Assembly (NCBI GenBank): GCA_965218585.1
Contig: CBDCLE010000026.1
Span: 64,001 to 128,000 of the forward strand
Origin: Terriglobia bacterium
GTDB taxonomy: Bacteria; Acidobacteriota; Terriglobia; 20CM-2-55-15
Length of the DNA: 64,000 nucleotides
Direction of reading: 5' to 3'
Shown one piece after another: positions 4,721 to 13,539 of the stretch. The first letter of the stretch is position 1; every line of letters begins with the position of its first letter. The notes beneath the pieces are model-generated. The model had not been told where the DNA came from. It saw nothing but the letters and a program-made list of their open reading frames with translations, and did not search any database. A program made the position numbers and the translations under genes.

Positions 4721-5620
4721 CTACGGCAGACCGCTGCGAACGACTTCTCGGATCGTGGCAATGCGGAGGGGATACGTCCCGATGACTTTCACCGTTGGCG
4801 TTCCCTGTTTCAACTGAGCGATCGCTTCCTTGACCGCTCGACTCTCCATGGTGCCGATGAAATCCACATGATAGACCGATTCGGAATGCGATCCACGAAC
4901 GGGACGCGACAGCACGTTCGTCAGGGGAATTCCGCATTCAACAAACGGGGCGAGCACACCCGACTCTCGCCGCGCCAAATGAGGCACCTGAAAGCATATG
5001 CTCGTCTTCAACGAATCGCTTTGGGGCTTCGCGGCTCGAGGATTGTCAGGCGCGGACAGGAGCAAAAACCGGGTGTAGTTTTCCGGGTGGTCCTGAATGC
5101 CTGACCTCAGAATCTCCCCACCGTAGACCTCCGCACTCCGGGCACTTCCGATCGCACCGGTGTGGGGCGTTTTTTCCCGGACGACGAGTTCAACGGCACC
5201 GGCGGTATCGAAAGCAGGCACAGGTTCCATCTTCAGATTGGTTCGAAGTGATCCCGCGCACTGGGCCAACGCGACGGGGTGAGAGAGTACCCGGTAAACG
5301 TCTTCGATACGTGTCCCTTTGGGAACGATCAGACAGTGCGAGATCGTCTGGACGGTCTCGTCGATGATGACGAGGTCGTTCTCGGCGAGCAGATCGTATG
5401 TTTCGTCGATCGGTCCGGCAAGCGTGTTCTCGACCGGAATGACGGCGTAAGGAGCCTGGCCCCCCTCGACGCTGTCGAACACTTCCTGAAGCGTCCGCAA
5501 CCCCAGGAGTCGGGATTCTTTAGGTACGAAATCGAAAGCGGCATCCTCGCTGAACGCACCCGGCTGTCCCTGGTATACGACGTCGTATTCGGATGTGCTT
5601 GTCGCTTCAGATATTGGCAT
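4721..5620 (-). CDS. pheA: Prephenate dehydratase (monofunctional, divergent ACT domain)
   Basis: YQGQPGAFSE, PVENT, SHPVALAQC and catalytic NYTRF; start MPISE at 5620 overlaps aroF end. Confidence 0.9.
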   Translation of the reverse strand: MPISEATSTSEYDVVYQGQPGAFSEDAAFDFVPKESRLLGLRTLQEVFDSVEGGQAPYAVIPVENTLAGPIDETYDLLAENDLVIIDETVQTISHCLIVPKGTRIEDVYRVLSHPVALAQCAGSLRTNLKMEPVPAFDTAGAVELVVREKTPHTGAIGSARSAEVYGGEILRSGIQDHPENYTRFLLLSAPDNPRAAKPQSDSLKTSICFQVPHLARRESGVLAPFVECGIPLTNVLSRPVRGSHSESVYHVDFIGTMESRAVKEAIAQLKQGTPTVKVIGTYPLRIATIREVVRSGLP

Positions 5621-6788
5621 GTGCAGCAGCTGCCTTTGCGAGGGTCTGTCTTCCCTCTTCGCGCGTCCTCCTAATAATATCTCGAAAAACCTCTTCGACG
5701 GTCTCGTCCGGCAAATCGGCAACGCCTGCCCTCTGTCCGATGAGCCGAAGAATGACCCTGTCCAGGTTTCGGGTCCGGTTCCACCGAGCTCCGACGCTTC
5801 GTTTTTGGGAGGCCAGAACCAGAGCCAGAGATTCCATCATCCGTTCAAAGTCATCCAGAGTCAGAGACTGGGCTCCATCGCATAAGGCTGATTCCGGTTC
5901 CGGATGGACTTCAACGATCAGACCCGCTACGCCGGCGGCAGCGGCAGCCTTGGACAGGGGTTCGACAAGATTCCGATGTCCGGTTGCATGGCTTGGATCC
6001 ACAAATACGGGCAGGTGTGTGCGTTCTTTCAGCAGGACGGCAGATCCCAAATCCAGTGTGTTTCGTGTGGCCGTTTCGAAAGTGCGTATTCCCCTCTCGC
6101 AGAGAATGATGTTCAGGTTTCCCTGAAGCGCGATGTACTCGGCAGCCAGGAGCCACTCTTCTACGGTTGCCGACAGGCCGCGCTTCAAGAGCACGGGCTT
6201 GGCCGCCTTCCCCGCTGCTTCGAGCAGACTGAAGTTCTGCATGTTGCGTGCACCGATCTGAAGAACGTCGGCATGCTCAGCGACCAGGGGCACGTCTTCG
6301 GTGTTGAGCACCTCGGTAACAACCGCCAAACCAAGCGCTCGACCGGCTCGGGCCAGCAGCTCCAACCCCTTCTTTTCCAGTCCTCTGAAGGAGTACGGCG
6401 AAGTCCGGGGTTTAAACGCTCCGCCGCGAAGAATGCGGGCGCCGGCAGTGGCCACAGCACCTGCGGTGGCCATGACCTGTGCTTCGCTTTCAACGGCACA
6501 CGGCCCAGCCGCGACGACGAATTCGGAACCGCCGATTTCGATATCGCCGACACGGACTCGCGTACCTTCGGGACGAAGCGACCGATGGACAAGTTTGTAT
6601 GGAGTGTCGATCTTCTCCACCCGGGCGACGCCCGGCAGGGAACCGAAACGTCCGGGATCGTTGTTCTTGGCTGTGGAAACGACGATCGTATTGTCGATGA
6701 CCTGTGCCCTCTGAGTGTCAGGGTCCAGGACCGCCTGAACCCCTTCGATATCTGCCGGACTTGCGTCGGCCTGCATTCGAACTAACAT
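5607..6788 (-). CDS. aroF: DAHP synthase (type I-beta) with N-terminal regulatory domain and C-terminal truncated chorismate mutase-like tail
   Basis: AGPCAVES, GGAFKPRTSPYSF, QIGARNMQN, LLKRG, CERGIRTF, DPSH motifs; RBS AAGGAGG. Confidence 0.93.
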   Translation of the reverse strand: MLVRMQADASPADIEGVQAVLDPDTQRAQVIDNTIVVSTAKNNDPGRFGSLPGVARVEKIDTPYKLVHRSLRPEGTRVRVGDIEIGGSEFVVAAGPCAVESEAQVMATAGAVATAGARILRGGAFKPRTSPYSFRGLEKKGLELLARAGRALGLAVVTEVLNTEDVPLVAEHADVLQIGARNMQNFSLLEAAGKAAKPVLLKRGLSATVEEWLLAAEYIALQGNLNIILCERGIRTFETATRNTLDLGSAVLLKERTHLPVFVDPSHATGHRNLVEPLSKAAAAAGVAGLIVEVHPEPESALCDGAQSLTLDDFERMMESLALVLASQKRSVGARWNRTRNLDRVILRLIGQRAGVADLPDETVEEVFRDIIRRTREEGRQTLAKAAAAHANI

Positions 6789-6803
6789 TGTGAAACCTCC
6801 TTA

Positions 6804-6850
6804 AACGAAAAAAGGCCCGTTCCCCGTTGGTTCCGGAGAGCGGGCCTTTC
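6804..6850 (-). terminator. Attenuator intrinsic terminator upstream of aroF
   Basis: Minus strand GAAAGGCCCGCTCTCC-GGAACCAAC-GGGGAACGGGCCTTTTTT: GC-rich hairpin followed by a U-tract, just before the aroF RBS. Confidence 0.85.
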
Positions 6851-6870
6851 GGCTCTAAATGGTATCGGTA

Positions 6871-6978
6871 TTACGCCGTTACCCACCCCCCAGGGGACCA
6901 AAACCAAAAATAGCCCTCATACGAATAGAGAGATCCCGCAGCTGCGGAGCTATTCAGAGTTGTGGGTACGCAGTTCAT
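6871..6978 (-). CDS. Aromatic amino acid attenuator leader peptide (35 aa)
   Basis: Manual translation MNCVPTTLNSSAAAGSLYSYEGYFWFWSPGGWVTA*; 3 Tyr, 2 Phe and 3 Trp clustered; followed by terminator. Confidence 0.85.
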   Translation of the reverse strand: MNCVPTTLNSSAAAGSLYSYEGYFWFWSPGGWVTA

Positions 6979-6996
6979 TTCTTCCCTAAAGAATTG

Positions 6997-7025
6997 AGTA
7001 TGCGGATCGGACCACAGTGTGTCAA
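6997..7025 (-). promoter_or_regulatory. Sigma70 promoter of the aro leader/aroF-pheA operon
   Basis: TTGACA (7025-7020), 17-nt spacer, CATACT (7002-6997). Confidence 0.7.
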
Positions 7026-7038
7026 CAAGTTAAGAAAT

Positions 7039-7115
7039 GGGGTCAGAGCCCTATTTCCCTATTTAATAACGGAAATAGATGTAGGGGGAAAATGGGGAAA
7101 TAGGGCTCTGACCCC
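7039..7115. repeat. REP-like palindrome with 21-bp perfect arms
   Basis: GGGGTCAGAGCCCTATTTCCC (7039-7059) ... GGGAAATAGGGCTCTGACCCC (7095-7115), immediately after the ilvA stop. Confidence 0.85.
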
Positions 7116-8390
7116 TTAAACCAGATAGCGGAGGAGGTCGGGACGGTCGTTCAAGTATTCTCCGAAGAAACCAAGTTCTTTCATTCGGCTGATGAGGGGT
7201 TCGAGGTCTTCCTTGTTTCTCAGCTCTATGCCGACAACAGCAGGGCCCCTCTCCCGGTCGGTCTTCTTGGAATACGCGAAGTGCGTGATGTCGTCGCCTG
7301 GCCCAAGGACGTCGACGACAAACTGACGGAGCGCTCCGGCACGTTGAGGAAAACGCACTATGAAGTAATGCTTCACGCCCTCGTAGATCAGCGCACGCTC
7401 CCGGATCTCTTCGATTCGACGAAAGTCGTTATTGCCACCACTGACCAGACAGGCCACCGTCTTCCCTTTCACCTGGTCCCGGAAGTCTTCCAGTGCGGAA
7501 ATAGCCAAGGCCCCGGCGGGTTCGACGATGATGCCATGATCGTTATAGAGCCTGAGGATCGTGGCGCACAGACGTCCTTCCGGAACAGTCACGACCTTAT
7601 CGAGGACATCGCGGCAGATCTGGAAGGTCAACTCGCCCACACGCTGCACGGCCGCACCATCGGTGAAAGCGTCAATTGTTTCGAGCGTCACCGGATGACC
7701 AGCCTGAAACGCTTCCATCATCGATGGAGCGCCTTCGGGTTGTACTCCGATGATTTCGGTTTCGGGAGATATCGCCTTGACCCAACTTCCGACGCCGGAA
7801 GCCAGACCCCCGCCGCCAACGGGCAAAAACATAATGTCGATCGTGTCACTGGCGTCATCGAGCATCTCGATACCGAGCGTGCCCTGGCCTTCAATCACAA
7901 CCGGATCATCGAAAGGATGGACATAGATGGATCCGTCGGCAGCGGTTCGACCGACGGCTTCGGCTTCGGCGTCGTCAAAAACATCGCCCACCAGTTCAAT
8001 GTCCACCAGCGATCCGCCGATCGCGCGCACACGTTCGATCTTCTGACTCGGCGTCGTCAAGGGCATGTAGATAGTCGCGTGGATTCCCAGCTTACTGGCA
8101 GCGTAGGCGACGCCCTGGGCATGGTTACCCGCACTTGCACATGAAACTCCCTTCCGGAGTTCCTCGTCCGAATAGCTGCGGATCTTGTTGTAGGCGCCTC
8201 GAATCTTGTAGGACCGGACAACCTGCAGATCTTCCCGCTTGAGCAGGATGTTGGCCTCGTAATCTTCCGAGAGGTGATCGTCGCGCTCCATCGGCGTCCG
8301 AACGGCGACGTTTTTTAAACGGCTCGCAGCCCTCCCGATGGCGTCCGTCGCCGGACGCCATGTCAGTTCGGGAGTTTCCTGCCGTGTCAC
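7116..8390 (-). CDS. ilvA: Threonine ammonia-lyase, biosynthetic short form
   Basis: KREDLQVVRSYKIRGA PLP lysine motif, SAGNHAQG, single C-terminal ACT-like domain (FPQRAGAL). Confidence 0.95.
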   Translation of the reverse strand: MTRQETPELTWRPATDAIGRAASRLKNVAVRTPMERDDHLSEDYEANILLKREDLQVVRSYKIRGAYNKIRSYSDEELRKGVSCASAGNHAQGVAYAASKLGIHATIYMPLTTPSQKIERVRAIGGSLVDIELVGDVFDDAEAEAVGRTAADGSIYVHPFDDPVVIEGQGTLGIEMLDDASDTIDIMFLPVGGGGLASGVGSWVKAISPETEIIGVQPEGAPSMMEAFQAGHPVTLETIDAFTDGAAVQRVGELTFQICRDVLDKVVTVPEGRLCATILRLYNDHGIIVEPAGALAISALEDFRDQVKGKTVACLVSGGNNDFRRIEEIRERALIYEGVKHYFIVRFPQRAGALRQFVVDVLGPGDDITHFAYSKKTDRERGPAVVGIELRNKEDLEPLISRMKELGFFGEYLNDRPDLLRYLV

Positions 8391-9496
8391 TTGGCTACTT
8401 TTGCTTCCTTTGCGCTCGCCGCTCCGGTTGTTTCCTTTACCGGACGATCGGTCTTGGATTCGGGTCGCAACTGCCGCACCTGCTTCCCGGTACGCCAGAT
8501 CTCTTCACCGCCCAACTCGTCGAGTTCCGCCTCGAGACGGTCCCGGTAATCGTCCCTACCACAGGATTCGATGACGATTCCCGCTTCCTTTCCTGAGCGG
8601 ACACTTTCGTAGAGCTCTTCGTACACCGGAGTCACGGCTTCACGGAACTTATGCCGCCAGTCCAGAGCGCCTCTCTGAGCCGTCGTGGAACAGTTGGCAT
8701 ACATCCAGTCCATTCCGTTCTCAGCTACCAGCGGCATCAAGCTCTGGGTCAGTTCTTCAACGGTCTCGTTGAAAGCCTCCGAAGGCGAATGACCGTTCTT
8801 TCGGAGTACGTTGAACTGTGCTTCGAAAACGCCGGCAATCGCGCCCATCAGAACGCCGCGCTCACCGGTCAAATCCGAATAGACTTCCTTCTGGAAGTCG
8901 GTCTCGAACAGGTAACCGGAACCGACGCCGATACCGAGCGACATGACGCGCTCGGTGGCGCGCCCGGTCGCATCTTGAAAGATCGCGTAGCTCGAGTTCA
9001 ATCCCTTCCCTGCAACAAAGAGCCGCCGTAGGGACGTTCCGGAACCCTTGGGAGCAATCAACACGACATCGACGTCATCGGGTGGGATGACACCGGTCTG
9101 ATCCTTGAACGTAATCGCAAAACCATGAGAAAAATAGAGGCACTTGCCGGCCGTCAGATGCTGCTTGACCTTCTCCCACTGAGCGATCTGGCCGGCGTCG
9201 GAGAGCAGATACTGGACGATCGTTCCGCGTTTGGCCGCCTCTTCAATCTCAAAAAGATTCTCGCCTTCGACCCATCCGTCGCCAACGGCCTTGTCCCAAG
9301 AGCGTGAGCCTTTCCGCTGTCCCACGGTAACGTTGAAACCATTGTCCTTCAGGTTGAGCGCCTGTCCCGGCCCCTGTACGCCATAACCGAGGACCGCAAT
9401 CGTTTCATCCTTCATGCAGTCTCGGGCCTTATCGAGGGGCCATTCTTCGCGCGTTGTCACATTCTCCTCGACATCGCCAAAACGTATTTTCGCCAT
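8387..9496 (-). CDS. ilvC: Ketol-acid reductoisomerase
   Basis: GYGVQGPGQALNL, FSHGF, APKG, SDLTGERG, CSTTAQRGA motifs. Confidence 0.95.
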   Translation of the reverse strand: MAKIRFGDVEENVTTREEWPLDKARDCMKDETIAVLGYGVQGPGQALNLKDNGFNVTVGQRKGSRSWDKAVGDGWVEGENLFEIEEAAKRGTIVQYLLSDAGQIAQWEKVKQHLTAGKCLYFSHGFAITFKDQTGVIPPDDVDVVLIAPKGSGTSLRRLFVAGKGLNSSYAIFQDATGRATERVMSLGIGVGSGYLFETDFQKEVYSDLTGERGVLMGAIAGVFEAQFNVLRKNGHSPSEAFNETVEELTQSLMPLVAENGMDWMYANCSTTAQRGALDWRHKFREAVTPVYEELYESVRSGKEAGIVIESCGRDDYRDRLEAELDELGGEEIWRTGKQVRQLRPESKTDRPVKETTGAASAKEAKVAK

Positions 9497-9541
9497 GCTG
9501 TAGATAACCTCCGCTTTGGGGATGGAGCGACCGCCCCCAAT

Positions 9542-10048
9542 TTATTTTCCGTCGATCTGGGCAAGGACGGGCTTGGTAACCATTACTCTTCCCGACCTGA
9601 CAAACTCCATTACGCCAAAAGGCTCTAAACGACCAAACAGTTCTTCAATTTCATCCTGCGACCCGGTTTTTTCAACTACGACGTAACCCGCACCCGCGAC
9701 AAGGATCCGTGCGCGAGACGTCCTTACAATCTTTGAGAGCGAATTCCTAACGGACGCTGCATCGAGCGAAAGTTTAAACAACGCCACTTCACGGTCGTGG
9801 GTTTCGACGTCGCGATGGTAGCTCACCTCGATCACGCCAACTAACGCGCCAATCTGCTTGACGGCACGCCGTATCCGATCCGGGGCCGCGCGGACAGCAA
9901 TACTGTGCTGATAAACATTTGACGCTTCGCCATTCGTACAGGTGAAGCTTTCGATCTTTATGCGGTGCCGTCCCAAACAGGCCGCCAGGCGCAGAAGAGA
10001 ACTCGAGTCGTTCTCCGTACGCGCCGAAACTGTGAATTGCGGATCCAA
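9542..10048 (-). CDS. ilvN: Acetolactate synthase small (regulatory) subunit, divergent
   Basis: ACT fold, REVALFKL and EFVRSGRV motifs; between ilvB and ilvC; probable TTG start at 10048 after AAGAGG. Confidence 0.85.
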   Translation of the reverse strand: MDPQFTVSARTENDSSSLLRLAACLGRHRIKIESFTCTNGEASNVYQHSIAVRAAPDRIRRAVKQIGALVGVIEVSYHRDVETHDREVALFKLSLDAASVRNSLSKIVRTSRARILVAGAGYVVVEKTGSQDEIEELFGRLEPFGVMEFVRSGRVMVTKPVLAQIDGK

Positions 10049-10085
10049 TGATTGCCTCTTAGTGGCCTCCAGGAGGCCAGCCAGC

Positions 10086-11852
10086 CTATTCCAGGCGGAT
10101 CTCCGAGCAGGGTGAACCTGCAGGGACCATCGGGAATATGTTGTCTTCCCGTTCCACCACCACTTCCAGAAGGAAAGACGATTCCGATTGAAGCATCGCG
10201 TCAATCGCGTCACCAAGTTCTTCTCTTTGAACCACCTGTTTTCCTTCCATACCGTATGCCGCGGCGATTCCCACGAAATCCGGATTCATCAATTCGGTCG
10301 CCGAGTAACGCCGCGAAAAGAACAACTGTTGCCACTGACGCACCATTCCCAGGTACTCGTTGTTCAGAATCATCATCTTGACCGGAATCTTCGCCTGGAA
10401 GATCGTACCCAACTCCTGGAGGGTCATCTGAAAACCACCGTCGCCGATGATGGCGACGATGGGTCGATCCTGGCGGGCAACAGCTGCACCAATGGCCGCC
10501 GGCAGGGCAAAACCCATCGTCCCCAGACCACCGGAAGTTATCGTGCCACTACCTTCGTCGAACTTGTAATAGCGGGCTGCAGACATCTGATGTTGCCCGA
10601 CATCGGTCACAATGATGGCTTTGCCTTCGCTGCGTTCGGATAACTGATGAACGACCTCCGCCATGCGGAGTCCAGAAGAATCCGGATGAATGTCCTTCCG
10701 AATAACCCGGTTGATCTCGATCTGATCGCAAGCTCGAAACTCCGCAAGCCACTCGTGGTGGGACCGAGACCCGACAGCTTCGGCAAGGGCACCCAGGGCT
10801 TCGGCGGCGTCGGCGACGATCGCCACGTCTGTCTTGACGTTCTTGTCGATCTCCGAGGGATCGATATCAATGTGGATGATCTTTGCCTGCTTGGCGTACT
10901 TGGAAAGATCACCGGTCACACGGTCATCGAATCGCATCCCGACCGCGATCAGGACATCGCATTCATTGGTCTTGATGTTCGGCCCGTAGTTGCCGTGCAT
11001 ACCCAACATGCCGGTGTGCAGCCGATGGCGACTCGGCAGTGCGGACAACCCGAGCAACGTACACGCGAACGGAAGATCGGCTTTCTCAACCAAAGCTTGA
11101 AGTTCGGCCTGGGCTTTGGACAGCAGGACACCCTGCCCCACCAGAACAAACGGTTTTCTTGACCGATCGATCAACCGCGCACCGGCCTCAACACTCGCCG
11201 GGTCCAGCGTGGGCCGGGGCCTGTATCCTCTGACTTCGGACACAGTGGCCGGATGATAGTCGAAGGTCTCTATCTGAGCGTCTTTTGTTATATCTATCAA
11301 GACCGGTCCGGGACGTCCCGAGCGCGCTATGTACAATGCCTTGGCCACCACCTCGGGAACCTCTTCGGCCCGCGTGATTTGGTAGTTCCACTTCGTCACT
11401 GGGGCGCTGACCGAAATGATGTCGGTTTCCTGAAACGCGTCCGAACCCAGCATCTTCGAAGGCACCTGTCCAGTGATACATACCACTGGTGTGCTGTCGA
11501 TTTTGGCGTCCGCAATACCGGTGATCAGGTTCGTCGCGCCGGGCCCGGATGTGGCAATGCAAACGCCCGGCCTTCCCGAGGCGCGCGCGTAACCCTGAGC
11601 GGCATGAACCGATCCCTGTTCGTGGCGGACAAGGATATGCCGGATTTGATGGTCGTATTCAAACAGGGCGTCGTATACCGGCATGATCGCGCCGCCGGGG
11701 TACCCAAAAATTGTTCGGACACCTTCCTGCAACAACGAAAGCACAACCGCCTCCGCTCCCGAAACCGTCTGCGGCGGTTGGACTAAGGCTTCCGGTGTTC
11801 GGAGGTTGCCGGTTTCCTCTTCCCTGCTTACCGTTGTTTTGCTCTGTGACAT
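10086..11852 (-). CDS. ilvB: Acetolactate synthase large subunit
   Basis: FGYPGGAIMP, RHEQG, TSGPGATN and TPP-binding GDGGFQM...NN motifs. Confidence 0.95.
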   Translation of the reverse strand: MSQSKTTVSREEETGNLRTPEALVQPPQTVSGAEAVVLSLLQEGVRTIFGYPGGAIMPVYDALFEYDHQIRHILVRHEQGSVHAAQGYARASGRPGVCIATSGPGATNLITGIADAKIDSTPVVCITGQVPSKMLGSDAFQETDIISVSAPVTKWNYQITRAEEVPEVVAKALYIARSGRPGPVLIDITKDAQIETFDYHPATVSEVRGYRPRPTLDPASVEAGARLIDRSRKPFVLVGQGVLLSKAQAELQALVEKADLPFACTLLGLSALPSRHRLHTGMLGMHGNYGPNIKTNECDVLIAVGMRFDDRVTGDLSKYAKQAKIIHIDIDPSEIDKNVKTDVAIVADAAEALGALAEAVGSRSHHEWLAEFRACDQIEINRVIRKDIHPDSSGLRMAEVVHQLSERSEGKAIIVTDVGQHQMSAARYYKFDEGSGTITSGGLGTMGFALPAAIGAAVARQDRPIVAIIGDGGFQMTLQELGTIFQAKIPVKMMILNNEYLGMVRQWQQLFFSRRYSATELMNPDFVGIAAAYGMEGKQVVQREELGDAIDAMLQSESSFLLEVVVEREDNIFPMVPAGSPCSEIRLE

Positions 11853-11853
11853 C

Positions 11854-13539
11854 TCACGCTCCGTCTGTCGTACATCCTTCTGAGGCGGGTGATACTGCCT
11901 TGGCATACTTGTAGAGGGCACCCGAAGTTACACGTAGTGGCGGCGCCGTCCACCCTGCCCGGCGCGCGGCCACTTCATCCGATGGCAATTCCACTTCGAT
12001 CGTGTTTCGAACGGCGTCAATCCGTATGCGGTCGCCGTCTCTGATGAGCGCAATGAGACCGCCATCCTGGGCTTCCGGAGTGATATGGCCAACGACAAAA
12101 CCGCGTGTTCCACCTGAAAAACGACCGTCTGTAATCAACGCGACGTCATTTCCCAATCCGGCACCCATGATCATCGAAGTAGGGGTCAGCATTTCCGGCA
12201 TCCCGGGTCCACCCCGTGGACCTTCGTAGCGAATCACGACAACGTCGCCGGCCTTCACCGCTCCCCGAGCGATGCTCGCATTCGCATCTACCTCGCTGTC
12301 AAAAACACGTGCGGGTCCTTCGAAGATCTCACCTTCCTTACCGGTGATCTTTGCGACCGCACTCTGCTCGGCAAGGTTTCCGTACAGGATTCTCAAGTGA
12401 CCGCGCGCGCTGATCGGGTCGCCCGGGTCATGCACGATCTTCTGGCCACTCTCGAGAGACGGTAAATCGGCTACGTTCTCAGCAAGAGTCGATCCGGTAA
12501 CGGTCATGCAGTCCCCATCGAGCAGTCCATGCTCTAAAAGCATCTTGATGACCGCGGGCGTTCCACCGATGTTATGGAGGTCCTCCATTACGTAAGACCC
12601 GCTCGGGCGAAAGTCTGCAAGGAGCGGGACCCGGCCGCTGATTTCCTGAAAATCGTCGACCGTAAGATCGAGCTGAAGGGTTCGGGCAATGGCCAGCAGG
12701 TGCAGCACAACGTTCGTCGATCCACCCAGAACGATTGCCAGCGTGATGGCGTTCTCAAAGGACTTGCGCGTCAGAATGTCCCTCGGCCGCAGGTTCTTTT
12801 CCAGAAGCGAGCGGAGCGACGCGCCGGCGTTGAGGCATTCAGCAACCTTCTCACTGCTTTCAGCGGGATTGGAGGAACTGTAAGGCAGGCTCATACCCAT
12901 GACTTCGATAGCACTCGCCATCGTGTTGGCCGTAAACATGCCGCCGCAGGCACCCGCACCCGGACAGCTCTTCTGGACGACTTCCTGGAACTTTTCGAGG
13001 GTGATCCTTCCGGCCAGGTGCTGGCCCAGAGCCTCGAACGACGAGATCACATCCAGCTTGTCGCCGTTCAGGTGTCCGGGAGCAATCGTCCCTCCGTAGA
13101 TCATGAGTGCCGGACGGTTGAGTCGCGCCATGGCGATCATCGCGCCCGGCATGTTCTTGTCACACCCCATGATCGTGATCAGGCCGTCGTAGTGCTGGGC
13201 CGAAGCGATCGTCTCGATGGAATCGGCAATCAGGTCGCGCGACGGCAGCGAATAGCGCATCCCGAGTGTCCCCATAGAGATGCCGTCGCTGACACCGATG
13301 GTGTTGGAAACAAAACCCACCAGATCCGATGCCTCGGTGCCTGCCTTGGCCTCCGCCGCCAGGCCGTTCAAGTGCATGTTGCAGGGGTTGCCCTCATATC
13401 CCGTGCTGATGATGCCCACCTGAGCCAGTTCGAGGTCGGACTCAGACAAACCGGCACCAAACAACATCGCGCGGGCCGCCGGTCGGTCATACGACTGGGT
13501 CAGCTCCTTGCTGATCCGGTTCAATTCCCTTGTTTCCAT
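11854..13539 (-). CDS. ilvD: Dihydroxy-acid dehydratase
   Basis: [45 protein letters not shown] motifs. Confidence 0.95.

Follow-up and report, generated by a model that had tools for sequence, protein, structure and literature searches.

What does the stretch of DNA just upstream of aroF do in this Terriglobia bacterium and, if it governs aroF and the adjoining pheA, which aromatic amino acids does it sense? The stretch lies within a 64,000-nt segment of contig CBDCLE010000026.1 (assembly GCA_965218585.1), and this entire segment is hereafter called the window. A preliminary description of the sequence had placed here, on the minus strand, an attenuator ahead of aroF-pheA in which one leader peptide would integrate Tyr, Phe, and Trp. 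We find that the anatomy of the proposal and the class of mechanism are supported by conservation in related genomes and by a model of alternative RNA structures, and we put the probability that the locus is a ribosome-mediated (leader-peptide) transcription attenuator of the aroF-pheA operon at roughly 0.8. The number of amino acids to which it would respond is a separate matter and is weighed below.

The two genes that the leader would control are both on the minus strand. aroF (5607..6788, ATG at 6788) encodes a class I DAHP synthase (PF00793/DAHP_synth_1, 2e-80) that carries a regulatory-type extension at its N-terminus as well as a C-terminal tail, and pheA (4721..5620) encodes a prephenate dehydratase (PDT; PF00800, 3e-55). 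The aroF stop codon occupies 5609-5607, and the probable pheA ATG at 5620, a start that was set from comparison with sister genomes, results in a 14-nt overlap between the two genes. The AroF tail (residues ∼335-393, 5607-5790) yielded no Pfam match. In the Atlas clusters nearest AroF, the DAHP synthase is fused to a chorismate mutase, with CM_2 present in 98% of members, and the tail could be what is left of a chorismate mutase domain, either truncated or diverged.

Every part that the preliminary description had listed upstream of aroF was found on the minus strand. The TTGACA-N17-CATACT promoter (7025-6997) consists of a -35 hexamer at 7020..7025, recovered by a promoter scan and by reading the sequence, and a -10 hexamer at 6997..7002, recovered by the scan, with a 17-nt spacer between them. 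It matches the consensus at 10 of 12 positions and is the sole promoter-like site in 6400-7400; since shuffled sequences held 0.4 ± 0.6 such sites, the match by itself is weak evidence (1 site found vs 0.4 expected). By eye, TTGACA or TTGACT stands at the equivalent position in related loci, and the -10 hexamer is identical in L002, L003, L004, and L117. Transcription would start near 6990, for an inferred 5′ UTR of ∼12 nt. The leader uORF (6871..6978), identified by ORF reading, has 35 codons and a TAA stop and begins with the ATG at 6978; a GGGA-type Shine-Dalgarno sequence stands 5 to 8 nt before this ATG, and the -10 hexamer ends 18 nt before it. Downstream of the uORF, folding gave an intrinsic terminator at 6811..6849 (5′ arm 6849-6833, loop 6832-6826, 3′ arm 6825-6811), followed by a run of six U (6808..6813) at which the attenuated transcript is predicted to end. 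The GC hairpin together with its U-tract (6849-6808) has a folding energy of -28.5 kcal/mol. A simple terminator scan did not list the hairpin at 6849-6811, and we suspect that its interrupted stem falls outside the scan rule. The aroF ribosome-binding site, AAGGAGG, is read in the sequence at 6796..6802, ahead of the aroF ATG. Five sequencing runs of unrecorded kind, in the form of contigs from two studies, contain all or part of this DNA, and none of the runs found is an RNA run.

The uORF is set apart by its codons. Codons 18-27 (6898..6927), delimited from the sequence and from a genome-wide density count, specify Tyr, Ser, Tyr, Glu, Gly, Tyr, Phe, Trp, Phe, and Trp, so that seven of ten are aromatic (Y18, Y20, Y23, F24, W25, F26, and W27). 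A further aromatic codon follows at W32, and for codons 18-32 the original tally of 8 aromatic codons among 15 holds. By comparison, aromatic residues account for ∼8% of codons in 1420 long ORFs of the window's genome. The three Tyr codons of the cluster are all UAU and the two Phe codons are both UUU, alongside two Trp codons; in the same 1420 ORFs, UAU (37%) and UUU (33%) are minor synonymous codons, and hence all five Tyr/Phe codons of the cluster are the minor choice. We counted stop-to-stop frames of at least 10 aa in all six frames of the 4.55-Mb genome and found that 13 of ∼165,100 contain at least 7 aromatic residues in 10. The remaining frames at this density belong to dispersed repeats, to Phe runs derived from poly-T, or to long proteins. 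When short ORFs followed by a terminator-like hairpin were scanned genome-wide, the leader uORF was the top aromatic match.

A crude scan for a second leader-peptide attenuator in the window's genome found none. Its two leads were both false: a Trp-Trp candidate turned out, once the flanking translation was read, to come from the 3′ end of a thioredoxin-like gene that is read in a different frame, and a Thr/Ile candidate lay upstream of an ORF judged by eye to be transposase-like.

The preliminary description had suggested that Y/F/W-rich uORFs be sought ahead of aroF homologues, and such uORFs proved to be recurrent. We searched AroF against 41 related genomes, added 80 named contigs that encode relatives, and applied a fixed rule to the 450 nt upstream of each homologue: a uORF in which at least 5 of 10 residues are aromatic and, downstream of it, a hairpin plus U-run. 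Leaders of this kind were present in 26 of 106 upstream regions, as compared with 0 of 106 when these regions were read on the opposite strand and 1 of 106 inside the gene. Because of these counts, and because of the rarity of such frames in the genome (13 of ∼165,100), the occurrence of an aromatic leader uORF and a terminator before aroF is more than chance. The rule misplaces the search region where the gene is without its N-terminal domain; by inspection, we located additional leaders before such genes in L003, L004, L005, L014, L043, and L086.

The leaders fall into two sequence types. Type 1 is frequent among MAGs that bear the labels Terriglobia, Bryobacterales, Candidatus Acidoferrum, and Acidobacteriota and has its antiterminator-like strand at the stop codon or just past it, and type 2 is the leader type of the window's own bacterial family. 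Across the leaders, which encode peptides of 14 to ∼41 residues, the reading frame and the aromatic codons are conserved, rather than a structured aptamer. In many Acidobacteriota-labelled leaders (e.g., L032, L038, L047, L051, L064, L065, and L071) we also observed CGA-UUU (Arg-Phe) inside the aromatic run, and in these same leaders a strand matching the terminator arm lies directly after the stop codon. CGA-UUU seems to be conserved as a motif of nucleotides, not of the peptide.

This pattern of conservation bears on two other explanations. The product of the uORF could be a small aromatic-rich peptide or protein with a function of its own rather than a sensor, and conservation of a short ORF would be expected of it. 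We consider this hardly credible, since length and sequence vary freely beyond the aromatic run, the codons that come next conform to the needs of RNA pairing, and the place of the ORF between promoter and terminator is fixed. The leader RNA could instead be a switch that binds a ligand, a tRNA, or a protein (a riboswitch, a T-box, or a TRAP-like element), with the uORF irrelevant. Such switches likewise pair a terminator with an antiterminator, although nothing specific to this locus points to one. An Rfam 15 scan of 6600-7300 at E values up to 10 retrieved no T-box, riboswitch, known leader, or other relevant family, and the locus is thus a member of no curated leader family. The only amino-acid leader row was Thr_leader on the opposite strand (E 9.2, 13.9 bits vs a gathering score of 55); the best rows were microRNA models over the palindromic repeat that lies upstream of the promoter, and ylbH (E 0.54), the one other leader row, fell over the same repeat. 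Together with conservation that resides in the frame and the aromatic codons and not in an aptamer, this makes a binding switch very improbable.

To describe the family-type leaders as a group, we used a covariance model, R1, made from six of them in alignment (A1). R1 matched 11 of 35 genomes of the window's family and, in an even sample of the class, 12 of 151 genomes, of which 9 are family members, namely the window's genome and 8 of the other 20. The window's leader scores 111.2 bits against R1 (E 9e-24), a match by construction given that it is a seed member; the matches beyond the seed were G008, G049, G023, G017, G013, and the second locus of G007. Outside the family, L128 and L130 were rejected as leaders for want of an aromatic uORF. 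The L129 match is confined to positions 79-125 of the model, its terminator part, and what R1 matched in G050 is likewise only a partial, terminator-like sequence; both were left out of the leader count.

The family-type leader does not stand before aroF only. It precedes aroF in six genomes (G000, G007, G022, G018, G014, and G049), lies directly before pheA (PDT + ACT) in G008, and precedes a small ORF of ∼72 codons in G007 (its second copy), G017, G013, and G023. In G013 and G007, the small ORF is followed by a gene that Pfam assigns to the biopterin-dependent aromatic amino acid hydroxylases. Near-identity of G017 to G007 suggests that the hydroxylase likewise follows in G017, and no hydroxylase was found after the ∼72-codon ORF of G023. 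The ∼72-codon ORF is itself conserved and has no Pfam family (L118, L119, L120, and L122, at ∼1655-1880 in the oriented loci).

In the family-type leaders, the terminator is well supported as a structure. In an alignment of 13 of them (A3), 92.9% of terminator cells are paired and 6 of 12 pairs are changed on both sides; neither the pairing nor the covariation score was reached by any of 500 shuffles, and slid registers of the terminator gave 35 to 63% pairing. The leader RNA as a whole (210 nt) folds with z = -2.24, with 5 of 200 shuffles equally stable.

Folding also pointed to a strand that could compete for the terminator 5′ arm. Region 2 (6881..6893), the G-rich 5′ strand of a putative antiterminator, lies in codons 29-33 of the uORF and forms 13 contiguous pairs with part of the terminator 5′ arm (6845-6833). 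With its flanks, the antiterminator duplex reaches -27.2 kcal/mol vs -28.5 kcal/mol for the terminator; a restricted test gave -21.5 kcal/mol. We represented the ribosome as an unpaired mask that begins 15 nt ahead of the first base of the A-site codon and runs to 12 nt beyond it, and computed the probability of the antiterminator on a transcript cut at 6830, before the terminator 3′ arm. The probability was 0.98 to 1.00 with the A site at codons 1-25, 0.63 at F26, 0.17 at W27, and 0 at every position from codon 28 through the stop. Stalls at Y18, Y20, Y23, F24, and W25 would therefore leave the antiterminator free, those at F26 and W27 partly mask its strand, and W32 is inside the strand, which in this mask model is covered by any ribosome beyond the codon cluster. 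With the whole terminator present, the equilibrium probability of the terminator was 0.90 to 0.97 at every ribosome position. As equilibrium always favors the terminator, we assume that the switch works only via kinetic folding, as the classical attenuators do.

After the aromatic run come Pro codons and then Gly codons (6881-6897), an arrangement that we also observed in L003, L004, L005, L116, and L117 in versions such as Pro-Gly-Gly, Pro-Pro-Pro-Gly, and Pro-Pro-Arg-Gly. These codons may only reflect the C-run and G-run that RNA pairing requires. Pro-Pro-Gly is a ribosome-pausing motif, and a pause there would keep the ribosome on the antiterminator strand.

The mechanism that we propose follows from this model. 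Transcription would start near 6990 and the 35-codon leader would be translated at once. With an ample supply of charged tRNA-Tyr, tRNA-Phe, and tRNA-Trp, the ribosome would pass codons 18-27 and reach the end of the uORF, where it would cover 6893-6881; the terminator would then form and most transcripts would end at ∼6808-6813. When an aromatic aminoacyl-tRNA is scarce, the ribosome would stall at codons 18-25 and leave the G-rich stretch naked, and 6893-6881 would pair with the terminator 5′ arm as it emerges, allowing read-through into aroF and pheA. The competition between the two structures would be kinetic. In addition, a candidate region 1 (codons 4-8, 6957..6969) is predicted to pair with region 2, with 6967-6962 joined to 6886-6881 at a probability of 0.97 to 0.99 on a transcript ending at 6878. 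This pairing could provide for termination when the leader is untranslated. Leaders of relatives, at 21 to 22 codons, are too short for region 1, and hence it is not conserved.

Comparative support for the antiterminator is of a different kind from that for the terminator. In the window's register, we found no covariation of the antiterminator: pairing extends to 73.1% of cells, a level that 301 of 500 shuffles equaled, and the covariation score was reached by 490 of 500. Among the leaders, the G-rich and C-rich strands pair in differing registers. When each leader was taken by itself, with the last 36 nt of the uORF and the spacer set against the terminator 5′ arm, a comparable pairing of the uORF 3′ end with that arm was present in 12 of 12 family-type leaders (-15.5 to -30.6 kcal/mol). 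Composition-preserving shuffles did as well in at most 4 of 200 cases for nine of these leaders and in 19 to 38 of 200 for the other three. In the leaders found by the fixed rule, the best strand begins -25 to +15 nt from the stop codon in 25 of 26, and at most 10 of 200 shuffles were as good in 12 of 26 only. Folding of both states had been put forward in the preliminary description as a check on the attenuator. Its result is divided: two alternative structures are predicted and their formation depends on the ribosome in the model, but the terminator wins at equilibrium and the antiterminator is without covariation.

These last two points would fit a different reading, in which the hairpin were a plain leaky terminator or an insulator between the upstream ilv genes and aroF, the uORF a chance or non-regulatory frame, and the promoter alone responsible for setting aroF expression. 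Against this, the hairpin is placed between a conserved promoter upstream and the aroF ribosome-binding site immediately downstream, the combination of aromatic uORF and terminator recurs before aroF far beyond either control, the same scaffold stands before other aromatic genes, and the aromatic density of the uORF is as rare in the genome as stated above. We judge a plain terminator to be improbable and favor the ribosome-mediated attenuator.

Which amino acids such an attenuator would sense is suggested by the codons of the leaders. Phe, Tyr, and Trp all occur in the densest 12 residues of 24 of 36 leaders, all of them among the 31 that are linked to aroF. Trp is present in the dense cluster of 24 of 31 aroF-linked leaders vs 0 of 5 pheA- or hydroxylase-linked leaders, a count that overstates independence because the loci are kin and in which the low-GC rows L067 and L081 are doubtful leaders. 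The leaders at hydroxylase loci are dominated by Tyr. This Trp pattern fits codon tuning to the controlled step. Closer to the window, the picture is more mixed. Besides the window's own, there are eight closest leaders before aroF or pheA (six in the family plus L043 and L075); Trp lies in the cluster of L003 and L117 only, the clusters of L002, L004, L005, L043, and L116 are without it, and L075 has a Trp just upstream of its cluster. Judged from codon composition, Tyr and Phe are the conserved putative inputs.

The attenuator could accordingly be mono- or bivalent in effect, responding to Phe or to Phe and Tyr, with Trp incidental or structural. This is a sub-case of the attenuator reading and not a competitor of it. 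It draws on the five of eight closest aroF/pheA leaders in which the cluster lacks Trp, on the upstream-only Trp of L075, and on the modeled stalls at W27 and W32, which would cover the antiterminator strand. A precedent is the Corynebacterium glutamicum aroR leader peptide (Phe-Tyr-Phe) upstream of aroF (Neshat et al. 2014, cited in PMC11802643; also PMC4046766), which, in the passages of PMC11802643 that deal with it, responded to Phe limitation and not to Tyr. Because aroR holds a Tyr codon with no Tyr response in that account, the presence of a codon need not give a response. On the other side, a stall at W25 leaves the antiterminator free in the model (P = 1.00), and the presence of Trp in 24 of 31 aroF-linked leaders vs 0 of 5 others is as expected if Trp matters at the shared first step. 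We regard a mono- or bivalent attenuator as a serious prospect that falls somewhat short of an even chance, and we hold true sensing of all three amino acids, Tyr, Phe, and Trp, in the same tentative regard. For the trivalent leader of the preliminary description, then, the codon composition stands, with support from aroF-linked leaders elsewhere, and three-way sensing is still a matter of inference.

The preliminary description had also started from the premise that aromatic attenuators use one amino acid. That premise is outdated, given that aroR mixes Phe and Tyr before aroF. Like aroR as portrayed in the same passages, in which stalling under limitation of the amino acid raises aroR read-through, the window's leader is a mixed aromatic leader before a DAHP synthase gene. 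The likeness is functional only: aroR has three aromatic codons and no Trp as compared with seven or eight aromatic codons here, and C. glutamicum belongs to a different phylum and has a class II DAHP synthase besides (it was the control row of our PF01474 search). A second candidate is the uORFC-13-1 motif upstream of aroF in Acholeplasma, for which Phe sensing has been proposed (PMC8632094). According to the description of the motif in that source, it resembles the window's leader in that a uORF lies directly before a terminator and aroF, and it is set apart from it as a U-rich, Phe-only candidate of Mollicutes, with no further likeness seen. For aroF of E. coli and Shewanella, too, leader-peptide attenuation is proposed in parts of the literature.

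The resemblance to E. coli pheL-pheA and trpL-trp lies in a uORF close to the promoter, a run of end-product codons, and alternative terminator and antiterminator structures, and there, as we propose here, a ribosome at the stop codon masks the antiterminator strand. The differences are that pheL and trpL (Rfam Phe_leader and Trp_leader) each use one amino acid vs three kinds here, and that their regulatory codons are inside region 1, whereas those of the window's leader lie between candidate region 1 and region 2. Multivalent leaders are found in enterobacteria, where ilvGMEDA (Leu/Val/Ile) and thr (Thr/Ile) are examples. The window's leader is like these in having codons for several end products of a branched pathway, with the difference that the end products there are the branched-chain amino acids or Thr and Ile and here are aromatic. 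Our full-text literature search, which reached few subscription journals, retrieved no mixed Tyr/Phe/Trp leader and no aroF leader in Acidobacteria. Within the reach of this search and of Rfam, the mechanism class is a known one, and what is new are the sequence families and the richer, three-residue codon cluster.

The surroundings of the leader hold further features. Directly upstream, the same strand carries ilvB, ilvN, ilvC, and ilvA in head-to-tail order (7116-11921), the last being the threonine dehydratase gene ilvA (7116..8390, minus strand; PALP + Thr_dehydrat_C). Since the ilv genes adjoin the leader, branched-chain and aromatic biosynthesis genes are neighbors here, parted by a repeat and the attenuator. 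The repeat, an 87-nt palindrome at 7033..7119 between ilvA and the leader promoter, has arms of ∼21 nt. By BLAST, it is dispersed, with the repeat or its arms at ∼15 places in the genome, four of the copies being nearly full-length at 84 to 88% identity. It may be a REP- or MITE-like element, perhaps one that serves as the ilvA terminator. The repeat is found after ilvA at the same spot in four sister genomes.

In these four other genomes of the genus (L124-L127), ilvA is followed by the repeat and next by pheA. They lack the promoter, leader, terminator, and most of aroF (5738-7034 in the window), and two of the sisters retain similarity to the last 70 to 117 nt of aroF upstream of pheA. Because of these remnants, and because the leader-aroF unit occurs in five genera of the family, the comparison favors a loss in the sister genomes rather than a gain in the window's genome. 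A class II DAHP synthase (PF01474) was not found in G000-G004. In the sisters (G001-G004), the sole class I-like match is weak (E 1e-18 to 1e-20, 31-33% identity), and a similar weak match in the window's genome (E 1.3e-19) is taken to be KDO8P synthase.

If the attenuator reading is right, ribosome-mediated attenuation of the first shikimate step would be extended to poorly studied soil phyla. A broader reading, which we advance as possible and with less assurance than three-way sensing itself, is that of an aromatic RNA regulon, in which one scaffold was copied within the family before aroF, pheA, and the phenylalanine-hydroxylase locus and its codons were tuned to each step. Trp codons would then occur only at the shared first step and Tyr-dominated runs before the Tyr-forming hydroxylase, and the window's aroF copy would act as a three-input OR gate for Tyr, Phe, and Trp. 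On this reading, the second leader type, unrelated in sequence, would follow the same logic and be widespread before aroF in Acidobacteriota-labelled MAGs. The recurrent, unannotated uORF and its regulatory terminator, which gene callers overlook, can now be marked for annotation. The leaders of the family also form a natural series, with the same scaffold bearing varied mixes of Tyr, Phe, and Trp codons, in which it may be tested how codons set the input of an attenuator.
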